DNA of 64,000 bases, from positions 12,063-76,062 of the forward strand of contig SVAM01000002.1 in NCBI GenBank assembly GCA_015059425.1, in the 5' to 3' direction. The translations under genes were made by a program, and so were the position numbers. Shown here one piece after another: positions 1-10,612 of the stretch. The notes beneath the pieces were generated by a model. The model was not told where the DNA came from. It did no database searches and saw only the letters and a list, made by a program, of their open reading frames with translations. This stretch comes from Bacillota bacterium. Its GTDB lineage: Bacteria > Bacillota_I > Bacilli_A > RF39 > UBA660. Each line of letters starts with the position of its first letter. Position 1 is the first letter of the stretch.

Positions 1-827
1 TAAGTAGTTTGGATACTACAAGTTTAAATACAACATATTATTATCGTGGTGATGTAGATGATAATTACGTAGAATTTGCAGGCTTCTATTGGAGAATAAT
101 CAGAATAAATGAAAATGGTTCACTAAGAATGATATATCAAGGAAGAGCAAAAGATGATGGCAAAAAATTAGAAATACAAAAAACAGGTAGTGAAACTCGA
201 CTGGCTGTATCTAGTGCATTTAATACAGATTACAACCGAGCCGAATATGTAGGATTTAAATATGAATTGGAAAATGCACATGGAACAGATAAGAAATCTA
301 CTATATTAAGTGCATTAGAAACATGGTATACAAAAGAAGATAATGAACTACAAAATTATGAAGAATACTTAGATACAGAATCAGGGTTCTGTGGAGATAG
401 AAGTCTAGCAATTGGTCCAGGTATTGGAACAGCAACAACACAATATAGAGCACTACGAAGAATGATGAGCGGTGCACCATCATTTAAGTGTTCAGATAAT
501 GAAAGTGATTTATACAAAACAAAGATAGGGTTAATAACAGCGGATGAAATTGTATATGCTGGAGGTATATATTGGGGTAGTAATTTAGATGGGGCTAGTA
601 ATTTTAGTTATTACTTATATACAGAAGTTTCGTGTTGGACGCTTACGCCGAGCCACTTCAATGAGACGAGTGCGCTTGCGCTTGCGTTTGCTATGTTCCC
701 TGAAGGTATTTTGTACTATGATTACATAAATCGCTCGTATGGTATCCGTCCAGTTATAAATTTGTCAGCTGAAAATCTGTCAATTTCTGGAAGTGGTACT
801 ATAAATAATCCATATGTCATTTCATAA
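1..827 (+). CDS. DGR-type target protein, C-terminal CLec-like variable region; 5'-truncated by window edge; paralog of 9050-10402
   Basis: Frame open to position 1; motifs FAGFYWRIIRINENGS, IGLITADE, WTLTP...YGIRPVINL, NPYVIS; GC-rich segment ~624-761. Confidence 0.75.
   Translation, partial: SSLDTTSLNTTYYYRGDVDDNYVEFAGFYWRIIRINENGSLRMIYQGRAKDDGKKLEIQKTGSETRLAVSSAFNTDYNRAEYVGFKYELENAHGTDKKSTILSALETWYTKEDNELQNYEEYLDTESGFCGDRSLAIGPGIGTATTQYRALRRMMSGAPSFKCSDNESDLYKTKIGLITADEIVYAGGIYWGSNLDGASNFSYYLYTEVSCWTLTPSHFNETSALALAFAMFPEGILYYDYINRSYGIRPVINLSAENLSISGSGTINNPYVIS
624..761 (+). repeat. Putative DGR variable region VR1
   Basis: Abrupt GC rise; only 2 of 34 codons from 648 to 749 end in A; aligns codon-by-codon with 10205-10336 apart from a 6-nt duplication. 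Confidence 0.7.
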
Positions 828-1032
828 ATGACATATGGAAAGACAATGAATATATGAAAGAAAGTTGTTGCAAAATGACTCCACATTTTGTAACTGCATA
901 GCATATTTTACTCAGAAACATATAAAAAGATGTTTTTTTTGCCTGCCAAACTTGTTTGTCGGCTAGGGGTAAAAATTTAATGTCTTAGTTATGAGAACAG
1001 TATTATCTTAACGAGATTTAAAAATAATATTT
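810..1032 (+). repeat. Conserved structured 3' element, copy 1 (putative ncRNA or cis element)
   Basis: Hairpins at 810-838 and 867-894; 50-nt block 983-1032 matches 10563-10612 at 49/50. Confidence 0.75.
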
Positions 1033-1079
1033 GAATAAAAACTTGTATAAATTCTTGCTTTATGGTATATTATAAAAGT

Positions 1080-1278
1080 AAAGCGAAAAAGAAGCTAAGT
1101 AATATATTGTTTTATATAGAGAGTTCATGGTTGGTGGGAATGAATTAAAAGAATATATGAAATCTACTTCTTTAGTGGAGCTAATACCTCCCGTGTAAGT
1201 TGCGTTAAAACTAATAAAGTAATATAAAGGATGGTACCGCAGAATTTGCTCCTTGCAAAGGCTGTGGTTTTTATTTTT
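1080..1278 (+). promoter_or_regulatory. T-box riboswitch, Ser specifier (UCU)
   Basis: AGAGA and GGTGGGAA stem I motifs, GAAA-TCT-A specifier loop, antiterminator AAGGATGGTACCGC, U-tract; precedes serS. Confidence 0.9.
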
Positions 1279-1295
1279 AGAAAGAAGGATTATAA

Positions 1296-8861: not shown

Positions 8862-8897
8862 TAGACAAGAAGTTAAATATATGGTATATTTTAAATA
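8862..8897 (+). promoter_or_regulatory. Sigma-A-type promoter shared with 35446-35473
   Basis: TAGACA-17nt-TATATT with TG extension; 28-bp identity 8870-8897 = 35446-35473. Confidence 0.7.
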
Positions 8898-8918
8898 TCA
8901 TAGGAAGGAAGTTAAGAA

Positions 8919-9053
8919 ATGAGAAAGATTTTAAGAACTTCCCAACAGTTTGCTAAAAATGCATCTGGGGAGGGGCTATTTAAGTTAAACACTCAGATAG
9001 TATCTAGGCAAAATAACTTTAAGTTACCTTTAAATATAGAGGTGACAAAATGA
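8919..9053 (+). CDS. 44-aa leader ORF with GGGGAGGGG tract, overlapping the target start (ATGA)
   Basis: AGGAAGG upstream; MRKILRTSQQFAKNASGEGLFKLNTQIVSRQNNFKLPLNIEVTK; below the ORF-track cutoff. Confidence 0.55.
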   Translation: MRKILRTSQQFAKNASGEGLFKLNTQIVSRQNNFKLPLNIEVTK

Positions 9054-10402
9054 AATTTGAAACTATAAGAAGTAAAAAGAAAATATTATTAATTGGAATA
9101 ATATTATTTTGCGTTAGTGTAACTTTAATATTAGCTACAAGTTTAGCAGCTTATAAAAAAACAACAACAATTAAAATAGCAGAAGGTACTGTTAATTATA
9201 TAATACCGGACTTTAAAATGATAGCGTTAAAACAGTGGAATGAAGAAATTGGAGAATATGAAGATGTTGGTGTAATGCCAAGTGGCAGTGAATATGTTAT
9301 TTCTGAAGATAGCTATTGTGAAGTATTAGGAGAAAAGGATGAAAATGTAGTACTCTATACTGATTCAAAAGGTCAGCATGTAATATCAAATATTCAAAAA
9401 AAATCGAAGTGTTATTTATATTTTGAAAAAAGAAGTACTGGAAGTAAATATATTTTAGCAAATAGTAAAATGAGAAGTGGAACACCGAATTTTGCAAATA
9501 CAAGTTGTACATCAGGGTCAAATAATGGTGGACATTGTAGAGAAGAAACAGTAGGTTTGTATTGTTGGGATATAGATACTAATGAGTCTTGTACATCTTC
9601 AAGCGAAAATAAAACATATTTTTATCGTGGAAATGTAAAAAATAATTATGTAAAATTTGCAGGGTTCTATTGGAGAATAATAAGAATAAATGAAAATGGC
9701 TCAATAAGAATGATATATCAAGGTAGAACAAAAGATGACTATGGTAATGAATTAGAAATACAAAATGTTGGAGATGAAACTCAACTGGCTGAAACAAGTT
9801 CATTTAATACAGATTACAACCGAGCAGAATATGTAGGATTTAAATATGAATTGGAAAATGCACATGGAACAGATGATAAGTCGACTATATTAAGTGCATT
9901 AGAAACATGGTATGCAAATGAACTACAAAATTATGAAGAATACTTAGATACAGAATCGGGATTTTGTGGCGATAGAAGTGCCTATACAGATACAAGTGGA
10001 ACAACAGCAGGTGGGGGTACAGGATCAACTAGAACCTATTATGGAACATATACAAGATTATGTACAAATAAAGCACCATCATTTAAGTGTTCAGATAATG
10101 GAAATGATTTATACAAAACTAAGATAGGCTTAATAACAGCAGATGAAGTGGCATATGCTGGAGGTACAAATACGTGGATTAATTATAGTTATTACTTATA
10201 TACAGGCAATTTGTATTGGACGCTTTCTCCGGGCATCTTCGACGGTTCGTATGCGAATGTGTTTCTCATGGGCAATACTGGTGGCTTGGACTTCACCCGC
10301 GTGCAACACTCGTATGGCGTCCGCCCAGTTATAAATCTGTCAGCTGATAACCTGATAATTTTAGGAAGTGGATTAGCAATTGATCCATATGTCATTTCAT
10401 AA
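9050..10402 (+). CDS. Membrane-anchored DGR-type target protein, C-terminal CLec-like variable region
   Basis: N-terminal basic plus hydrophobic anchor; YWTLSP...YGVRPVINL C-terminus; GC-rich VR. Confidence 0.8.
   Translation: MKFETIRSKKKILLIGIILFCVSVTLILATSLAAYKKTTTIKIAEGTVNYIIPDFKMIALKQWNEEIGEYEDVGVMPSGSEYVISEDSYCEVLGEKDENVVLYTDSKGQHVISNIQKKSKCYLYFEKRSTGSKYILANSKMRSGTPNFANTSCTSGSNNGGHCREETVGLYCWDIDTNESCTSSSENKTYFYRGNVKNNYVKFAGFYWRIIRINENGSIRMIYQGRTKDDYGNELEIQNVGDETQLAETSSFNTDYNRAEYVGFKYELENAHGTDDKSTILSALETWYANELQNYEEYLDTESGFCGDRSAYTDTSGTTAGGGTGSTRTYYGTYTRLCTNKAPSFKCSDNGNDLYKTKIGLITADEVAYAGGTNTWINYSYYLYTGNLYWTLSPGIFDGSYANVFLMGNTGGLDFTRVQHSYGVRPVINLSADNLIILGSGLAIDPYVIS
10205..10336 (+). repeat. 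Putative DGR variable region VR2, ending in GC-rich IMH-like GGCGTCCGCCCAGTT
   Basis: Of 32 codons 10229-10324: 15 end in C, 8 in G, 8 in T, 1 in A. Confidence 0.8.
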
Positions 10403-10612
10403 ATGACGTATGGAAAGACGATGAAGATATGAAAGAAAGTTGTTGCAAAATGACTCCTCATTTTGCAACCGCTTAGCTTTATATTTTTCATCAACAAATA
10501 AAATAAGGAATTAACCCGCTGAACTTTGTTTGTCGGCTGGGCGATTATATAGAATAAAAATATCTTAGTTATGAGAGCAGTATTATCTTAACGAGATTTA
10601 AAAATAATATTT
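10385..10612 (+). repeat. Conserved structured 3' element, copy 2
   Basis: Hairpins at 10385-10413, 10442-10469 and ~10514-10541; 50-nt block shared with copy 1. Confidence 0.75.

Follow-up and report, generated by a model that had tools for sequence, protein, structure and literature searches.

Hairpins behind diversified target genes in a Bacillota genome as probable remains of a decayed diversity-generating retroelement cassette

Introduction

The way in which cDNA from a diversity-generating retroelement (DGR) locates and replaces its target has not been settled (PMC12875486). The only target-side element defined so far is the short GC hairpin of BPP-1-like phages. In phage BPP-1, a stem-loop located 3' of the variable region (VR) and its initiation of mutagenic homing (IMH) sequence raises retrohoming (PMC3240598), and hairpins of this type are characterized in that study by a GC-rich stem of 7–10 bp, a 4-nt GRNA loop and a position 4–34 bp after the VR (Guo et al. 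2011, PMC3240598). Work on reconstituted BPP-1 reports that the lagging-template orientation is favored, and its authors suggest that the open state lasts longer owing to the stem-loop (PMC12875486). A separate group of DGRs, Architecture D, carries the accessory family MSL (MutS-like), a small MutS domain I-like protein of 112–283 aa whose gene shares a cassette with avd (Wu et al. 2018, PMC5758913); Msl is also present in Bacteroides DGRs (bioRxiv 2024.11.15.621889). Group IIC introns home at terminator stem-loops (as discussed in PMC3240598). Here we set against these systems an element of about 220 nt that stands, in two copies, behind two diversified target genes for surface proteins in a 64,000-nt stretch of a Bacillota genome (contig SVAM01000002.1, positions 12,063 to 76,062; hereafter the window).

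The element consists of two hairpins, H1 and H2, followed by a third candidate hairpin, H3, and a 50-nt block, block 4. An earlier note, made from the letters of the window, had proposed a single large non-coding RNA (ncRNA) or cis element. Our analysis replaces that unit by a composite whose blocks differ in origin and range: H1 was seen in the genus and, by eye, at three loci outside it, H2 is found throughout the lineage, H3 occurs only in this genome, and block 4 is a piece of a gene leader. With moderate confidence, we read the second copy as the spacer between target and MSL gene of a decayed compact DGR cassette, the first copy as its duplicate, and H1 and H2 as landing-site hairpins. 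H1 and especially H2 would then constitute a new form of DGR target hairpin at the level of the lineage; we found no published description of them in the DGR literature searched, supplements aside.

Compared with the BPP-1 hairpin of PMC3240598, H1 and H2 are likewise inverted repeats downstream of the VR in the target, absent after the template repeat (TR), and they lie between the target gene and an accessory gene. The stem is kept as structure (H1 and the base of H2) and the loop as sequence (H2), and the stop codon of the target lies inside H1, as drawn for mtd (PMC3240598). They are unlike the BPP-1 hairpin in their AT-rich stems of 11–14 bp, in their loops (3–6 nt in H1 and ACTCTT in H2, in place of a 4-nt GRNA), and in their distance from the IMH-like block, from which H1 begins after ~50–60 nt and H2 after ~100–125 nt. 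Furthermore, there are two hairpins in place of one, the upper 7 bp of H2 are invariant across genera, and the function proposed here is derived from sequence. As in MSL-type DGRs (PMC5758913; bioRxiv 2024.11.15.621889), the relatives of this bacterium have a MutS domain I-like gene together with avd and a reverse transcriptase (RT) gene, and the targets are C-terminally diversified secreted proteins. Unlike those systems, our genome keeps only a 5' stump of MSL, with avd, RT and template gone, and the system of the genus is dispersed, with template arrays and satellite MSL genes, an arrangement that we did not find described in PMC5758913 or bioRxiv 2024.11.15.621889, supplements aside. The likeness to group IIC intron homing is that a stem-loop in single-stranded target DNA would serve as the address and that pairing outweighs the sequence of the stem; unlike that case, no intron or intron RNA is involved here, T-runs are absent, and the top and loop of H2 are invariant in sequence.

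Results

Conserved blocks in diverged surroundings

Copy A of the element occupies window positions 809–1035 and copy B positions 10384–10615, in a genome of 1.15 Mb with 25% GC (18 contigs, 95.7% complete), designated G000. Copy A follows target gene A (3..827, + strand), whose open reading frame (ORF) is open at the window start and which matches no Pfam family; copy B follows target gene B (9050..10402, + strand), which encodes 450 aa according to the ORF list. Aligned 3' of the stop codons, the two copies are 81% alike (192 of 237 columns identical). A longer blastn match pairs 26–1035 with 9607–10615 at 76.8% identity and ends at 1035/10615, 18 nt upstream of a small MutS-like ORF (10633).

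The likeness is concentrated in blocks. H1 is identical at 30 of 31 columns, the linker between H1 and H2 at 24/26, H2 at 27/29 and block 4 at 49/50, compared with 31/51 in the spacer, 22/34 in the H3 region and 7/13 in a second spacer. Taken together, the H1–H2 part (the first 86 columns) has 81 identities, which column shuffles rarely equal (p 0.001), and the same holds for a 50-column window with 49 identities (p 0.005). The four shared blocks separated by diverged spacers, and the near-identity of the 50-nt block, thus stand as the earlier note had given them.

H1 spans 809..839 (+) in copy A, as an AT-rich hairpin of 13–14 bp with a 3-nt loop over the stop codon, and 10384..10414 (+) in copy B, where it contains one G-U pair; the fold is placed at 810–838 and 10385–10413, and 4 of the 13 bp are GC pairs. 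Its left arm in copy A is coding (PYVIS*). H2 spans 867..894 (+) in copy A and 10442..10469 (+) in copy B and has 11–12 bp, 4 of them GC pairs. An invariant top, formed by a 7-bp stem (CAAAATG/CATTTTG) and a 6-nt loop, sits on a variable base, which is GTTG/TAAC with one G-U pair in copy A (4 bp) and GTTGC...GCAAC, fully paired, in copy B. The loop consensus is ACTCTT; the G000 copies read ACTCCA and ACTCCT. Both hairpins fold as they had been drawn, and the differences between the copies in H1 and H2 give G-U pairs on the + strand. Compared with dinucleotide shuffles, the full stretches have the more stable folds (z -4.5 and -5.7; none of 200 shuffles equal), and these scores are owed almost entirely to H1 and H2.

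A scan of the + strand over 700–1300 and 10280–11050 detected no terminator-like site and no T-run after any hairpin, in line with the lack of terminator U-tracts pointed out before; terminator-like scores were obtained on the - strand only, for H1 of copy A and H2 of copy B. The scan of both copies found no promoter/terminator pair bracketing the 220-nt stretch. A covariance-model search of window positions 1–12000 with Rfam 15 (E up to 1) returned only a T-box and a tRNA, leaving the element unmatched, and the same search of eight relatives' loci gave a single chance-level miRNA match and nothing relevant. No known RNA family thus claims the stretch.

H1 and H2 covary among relatives

Among 30 genus sequences behind related target genes, all 30 have H1 over the stop codon, ahead of H2. 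These sequences contain 26 distinct left arms of H1, always matched by the right arm: the arm pairs comprise 342 Watson-Crick, 9 G-U, 0 A-C and 8 other combinations, and a left arm pairs on average at 0.98 with its own right arm versus 0.59 with the right arms of other sequences. In a MAFFT alignment, 8 of 11 H1 pairs show changes on both sides. When the 22 pairs of H1 and H2 were taken together, 88.6% of cells were paired versus 33–46% with the partner slid, and 0 of 500 shuffles reached the score; these controls are shuffles and slides and are not phylogeny-aware. The loops of H1 in the genus are CAT, CATA, GTA and similar. Outside the genus, an H1-like hairpin over the stop codon was noticed by eye at three loci (L072, L074 and L103).

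H2 reaches further. Its core, allowing up to 2 mismatches, was found at 40 sites in 27 of 44 genus genomes, and a reversed control gave 0 matches. In a collection holding one genome for each of 185,579 species, the exact H2 20-mer occurs at 43 places, where about one is estimated by chance; 42 of these are in metagenome-assembled genomes (MAGs) from the gut, the sole exception being a Paenibacillus, and nearly all are labeled Bacilli, Mycoplasma or Tenericutes, with two Muribaculaceae. H2 follows the stop codon of a target-gene homolog in nearly every case. The near-invariance of its top and loop is partly a product of the search, which used the core to find the sequences; the four lower pairs were unselected, and these outer pairs covary over 52 distinct sequences, with 0 of 500 shuffles reaching the score. 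One of them, for example, is UA in 17 sequences, GC in 8, UG in 8, GU in 7 and CG in 6. The covariation that had been called for in the earlier note is present in both hairpins, and its conserved non-coding feature, tied to DGR targets and to the MutS-like gene, is borne out as real and constrained.

Wobble pairs are distributed asymmetrically. Read on the sense strand, the outer H2 pairs hold 20 G-U versus 4 A-C, and H1, as given above, 9 versus 0. Such a bias rules against a symmetric cruciform, as had been argued from the two copies; the further preference for RNA does not follow, an RNA and a DNA hairpin of the sense strand being undistinguished by it.

The distance between the IMH-like GC block and the H2 core is 119–129 nt in most genus loci. 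Outside the genus it is 97–101 nt at most loci, and H1 usually has no space there. H2 without H1 is the state of most of the 24 further loci added by the collection-wide scan. An MSL gene of ~100–135 aa lies within ~200 nt after H2 at 11 of the 40 genus sites, including copy B of G000 (by cross-matching of coordinates), so that the suspected link to the MutS-like gene holds. A small ORF over H2, with its ATG inside the stem, was considered and rejected; by eye, its frame is shifted by indels among relatives.

Many genus H2 sites lie at most ~550 nt from a contig end (for example G036:C15:336, G020:C7:424, G061:C22:405, G063:C32:108, G003:C18:271, G024:C55:111, G033:C39:72, G012:C11:539 and G001:C16:273). 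Assemblies seem to break near the adjoining VR or template cassettes, as expected if these are heterogeneous or repeated.

H2 marks DGR targets in relatives

In several relatives' loci a template repeat follows H2 after 100–200 nt and mismatches the upstream VR at template adenines. In alignments made with strict scoring, mismatches at adenine versus non-adenine positions were 17/39 versus 0/74 (L053), 14/28 versus 0/82 (L076), 12/27 versus 0/87 (L078), 11/33 versus 0/79 (L107) and 10/30 versus 1/85 (L091). By this pattern, several H2-bearing genes count as genuine DGR targets. What comes after the template copies inspected in relatives is a different sequence and not H2.

Compact cassettes occur in several forms: target–H2–TR–MSL (L086 and L095), target–H2–TR–Avd (L107) and target–H2–MSL–Avd (L083). 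In the genus, MSL (Pfam MutS_I), a bAvd-like gene and the RT gene form one overlapping operon, in which an MSL of ~140 aa comes first; this size and the company of avd agree with the published description of the family (112–283 aa, with avd), from which the 98-aa ORF of G000 departs. The parts of the genus DGR are dispersed: the core operon has its fixed place on the chromosome, template cassettes follow a single target or form arrays, and satellite MSL paralogs come right after target genes. Each of five genus genomes searched contained 13–30 VR/TR-like matches.

Arrays of template cassettes were seen at G003:C17 ~9200–12450 (L152, L157, L162 and L166), with at least 11 matches to one template at ~300-nt spacing, and also at G005:C16, G017:C25 and G066:C12. 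Many templates for one RT are unusual for DGRs. The inspected cassettes begin near GGTTAATCTA and end with the IMH-like block plus AATATCC, a conserved segment of ~60 nt reading GGTTAAGG...GGATACAAGATTAATCC, and a terminator.

G000 keeps diversified targets and lacks the DGR core

Genes A and B belong to a target family with 19 paralogs in G000, 3 of which have a GC-rich C-terminal patch. GC content is 0.43 in the patch of gene A (620..745, +), 0.47 in that of gene B (10200..10332, +) and 0.51 in a third paralog on another contig (1736–3439 of L002, G000:C11), compared with 0.27–0.39 in the other 16. The patch of gene B ends in an IMH-like block, GGCGTCCGCCC, which sits 119 nt before the H2 core. 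Over the C-terminal domain, protein identity is 61% between A and B and 74% between B and the third paralog; a relative's homolog gave a weak match to DUF6273 (E 2e-4, below cut-off). Between A and B, the patch (58 codons) differs at 22, 24 and 14 first, second and third codon positions, and the 173 codons ahead of it at 29, 20 and 36. For B and the third paralog, the corresponding counts are 23, 19 and 15 in the patch (58 codons) and 12, 12 and 30 upstream (182 codons). The excess at positions 1 and 2 in the patches is what a DGR variable region should show, and we refer to these VR-like patches as VR-A and VR-B.

H1 and H2 follow 2 of the 3 GC-rich paralogs and 0 of the 16 AT-rich ones. The third GC-rich paralog ends in PYVIS* with the left arm of H1 and then diverges, without right arm and without H2. 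The AT-rich paralog in the window (~35538–35918) lacks the element, as had been noticed before, and so do all 16.

A blastn search of the 18 contigs for a template of VR-A or VR-B, at word size 7, gave paralogs only; at 95.7% completeness, a missing contig is possible. Searching G000 by tblastn with a relative's RT and Avd gave no match at E 0.01. The only RVT_1 match, on another contig at G000:C9:52770-53312 (L001 ORF 1348-2298), lies in an ORF of 316 aa with no template repeat nearby, next to ychF-like and transporter-like genes; from the motifs VTG and YCDD, it looks retron-type. The site at which relatives carry the MSL–Avd–RT operon is empty of core genes in G000: between a conserved gene (64755–65618) and a lipoprotein-like gene, it measures ~400 nt (G000:C9:65618-66014), and its sole content is a small membrane-like ORF on the - strand, one that relatives have after the RT gene. 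Three components of an active DGR, a DGR-type RT, Avd and a template repeat, are thus absent from the assembly.

What is left of the core is an MSL remnant behind copy B (10633..10929, +), a 98-aa ORF with a GTG start that matches Pfam MutS_I at E 1.8e-6 (28.6 bits, cut-off 20.6). It is homologous to the ~140-aa core MSL only over 10643–10855 (~71 codons), where the blastn match ends at query position 256; by tblastn, residues 6–81 of the core MSL are 51% identical to it. Read by eye, the start signals of this stump are poor. It is followed by lepA (11010), with no avd there. A long inverted repeat lies at ~10850–10910 in the 3' end of the remnant, and after it comes a canonical terminator (~10961–10995) that resembles, by eye, the terminator region behind the template cassettes of relatives.

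We also compared the window with contigs of four faecal-metagenome runs at 85% likeness, the output being mostly other organisms and paralogs. VR-B was present letter for letter in contigs of two runs (X1 10071–10456 and X7 10024–10365), and VR-A was unchanged in one contig (X3 475–881). These unchanged VRs agree with inactivity, as weak evidence, given that the runs could be related to one another and that rare variants stay hidden in contigs. An apparent joint at 10240–10315 in the metagenome output was discarded as most likely a paralog aligned on copy B.

H3 and block 4 differ from H1 and H2 in origin and distribution

H3 is a GC-rich bulged hairpin at 942..967 (+) in copy A (CCTGCC/GGC-t-AGG) and 10515..10541 (+) in copy B (CCCGCT/GGC-t-GGG). 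The hairpin can be drawn as the earlier note had it, with a compensatory swap between the copies. Its 20-nt pattern, with up to 3 mismatches allowed, matched G000 twice and the remaining 43 genus genomes once, at a site that looks like chance; because H3 is known only from these two copies, the single swap has no statistical weight.

Another GC-rich element stands after H2, just upstream of satellite MSL paralogs, at L004, L021, L016, L017, L014 and L038/L065. Its closing stem, ATTGCC/GGCAAT, surrounds GCGATATCCGGTAGGGTGAGT, and at two loci both sides change to ATCGGC/GCCGAT; it may be a structured leader. H3 has TTGCC and CGG(C)TAGGG in common with this element. A kinship of H3 with this leader hairpin, or with a hairpin upstream of the template repeat, was set aside, the likeness being too short to demonstrate it.

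Block 4 lies at 983..1032 (+) in copy A and 10563..10612 (+) in copy B, there directly upstream of the MSL remnant. Copy B agrees with the MSL leader of three relatives (L005, L006 and L007) at all 32 of 32 nt. That leader, a region of ~130 nt upstream of MSL with a promoter-like TTGACA-17-TATATT site, is common to all 30 core loci of the genus, and its most conserved part corresponds to the first 31 nt of block 4. Relatives carry a single block 4 per genome, located in the operon leader instead of after a target gene. Based on this likeness and position, block 4 is part of the 5' leader of the MSL–Avd–RT operon. RNAalifold yields a weak consensus structure for the leader (-4.9 kcal/mol), and the nine pairs predicted in block 4 never change on both sides. 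In copy A, the first ~31 nt match the operon leader in the same way; no MSL gene follows there and the T-box leader of serS comes next, which is what a duplicated flank would show. A possible upstream ORF covering block 4 was rejected, its frame being shifted by indels among relatives (by eye).

Discussion

Proposed origin and role of the element

The arrangement in G000 is best accounted for, in our opinion, if copy B is still in its place of origin, with target gene and VR, H1, H2, H3, the MSL leader (block 4) and the 5' stump of MSL in a row. The compact cassette behind target B would have lost its template, the 3' half of MSL, Avd and RT, and copy A would be an old duplicate of target gene plus flank, reaching to just before MSL. 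The spacers have diverged and third positions differ in 36 of 173 codons ahead of the VR, which makes the duplication an old one, with the blocks retained through most of the time since. Most likely the element in G000 is now a relic. In this form it is a record of DGR decay: the engine is gone, and what remains are the target-side signals and a fragment of leader.

H1 and H2 would be cis-acting hairpins on the target side, counterparts of the BPP-1 stem-loop 3' of VR and IMH. They would fold in the sense strand, either in mRNA or, as we judge more likely, in a transiently single-stranded lagging-strand template. The cumulative GC skew climbs across window 1–33 kb; by the usual rule the + strand is then the leading strand, which makes both targets co-directional with replication and their sense strand the lagging-strand template, the orientation favored in reconstituted BPP-1 (PMC12875486). 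The wobble bias on the sense strand fits such a lagging-template hairpin. Once folded, H1 and H2 could keep the VR accessible to mutagenized cDNA, and the invariant top of H2 would probably be read by a DGR protein. If so, the tag of this lineage consists of two hairpins, one of them with a 20-nt invariant top at a nearly fixed distance from the VR, and remote DGR targets in gut metagenomes could be searched for by means of the H2 motif.

An MSL gene often stands right behind this tag. A more specific proposal, which we regard as speculative and rather improbable, is that H2 is the address tag of a whole lineage of MSL-type DGRs in small-genome gut Bacilli, its sense-strand hairpin being read sequence-specifically by a DGR protein, most attractively MSL, whose satellite genes directly follow many H2 sites. 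Block 4, retained in the MSL operon leader as well as after the remote target A, would be a second site for this protein, which would guide mutagenized cDNA to near and remote targets. If true, this would be an undescribed step of protein–hairpin recognition in DGR retrohoming and the first function of MSL.

Several points weigh against H1 and H2 as landing-site hairpins of a decayed cassette. In stem, loop and distance, they depart from the published description of DGR hairpins. H2 is not required for being a target: a second VR in the relative G031, with mismatches at 11/37 adenine and 2/73 non-adenine positions, has neither H1 nor H2 and only an unrelated hairpin, and another diversified target has H1 with a truncated H2. 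The suggestion that the element marks remote targets is therefore plausible as far as it goes, with at least this one diversified target lacking the mark. Genus genomes hold 1–3 H2 sites versus 13–30 VR/TR-like segments, of which the 11 inspected were mostly template cassettes. The VRs of G000 mismatch the templates of relatives at 32–40% of non-adenine positions, and against these diverged templates the best Fisher p of the adenine test is 0.008–0.03. Block 4 is unexplained in copy A, where it is kept at 49/50 with no MSL behind, when a role as leader only predicts decay like that of the spacers.

A possible function in gene expression

H2 is mostly found where a template cassette or an MSL gene adjoins, and its invariance might serve transcription or processing. 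H1 and H2 could act on the 3' ends or stability of an abundant target mRNA, or as an insulator or processing site ahead of the following transcription unit (template RNA or MSL), with the 3' arm of H2 as the -35 box of its promoter. We consider this unlikely, with some observations in its favor. H2 is nearly always at the junction of a target and the next module, a few copies outside the genus (L078 and L097) have a T-run after H2, and the G-U bias fits RNA. In two flank types within the genus, moreover, we noticed by eye that a TTGNNN in the 3' arm stands 17–18 nt before a TATA-rich hexamer (TATAAT, TATATA or TATAAA), which also counts against a landing-site role. This promoter-like spacing is, however, absent in both G000 copies. 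Read by eye, the ordinary terminators of the genome have clear T-runs, and on the + strand of G000 neither H1 nor H2 is followed by one; termination needs no loop and stem top that stay invariant across genera; and the 16 non-diversified paralogs, which also need mRNA 3' ends, all do without H1 and H2.

A flank possibly just carried along by duplication

Quite unlikely, in our estimate, is that the stretch in G000 is simply a co-duplicated flank with no present function, its pattern being due to past constraint or to patchy gene conversion between A and B. This explanation agrees with the decayed-cassette reading on origin and differs from it on present function only. It draws on the lack of RT, Avd and template in an assembly that is 95.7% complete, on the MSL stump with its poor start signals, on the third GC-rich paralog, which is already without the right arm of H1 and H2, and, weakly, on the metagenome contigs that carry VR-B and VR-A unchanged. 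Against it, the spacers have diverged (31/51 and 7/13) where the H1–H2 part and block 4 have not (81/86 and 49/50), and the third-position differences ahead of the VR indicate that the duplication is old. Conversion tracts would need to coincide with the very blocks that relatives conserve.

A single structured RNA as an improbable reading

That the whole 220 nt form one structured ncRNA or 3' untranslated unit, marking remote targets or coupling them to MSL, is very improbable: the folding of both copies far beyond shuffles, the sense-strand wobbles, the 49/50 identity of block 4 in a copy without MSL (as if the unit had been selected whole) and the lack of a matching RNA family speak for it, but the blocks travel separately, with H2 lacking H1 at most of the added loci, H1 and H2 followed in relatives by template cassettes, satellite MSL genes or unrelated DNA, H3 private to G000, block 4 in relatives a once-per-genome operon leader that does not stand behind targets, no promoter and terminator bracketing the stretch, and nearly all of the fold z-score coming from H1 and H2.

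Neighboring features

Downstream of copy A, the gene serS (1296–2582) is preceded by a T-box leader at 1083–1256, which scores 79.5 bits (E 2.6e-16; the Rfam gathering score is 93). Ahead of this T-box, a promoter-like TTGTAT-17-TATATT can be seen by eye at ~1048–1078.

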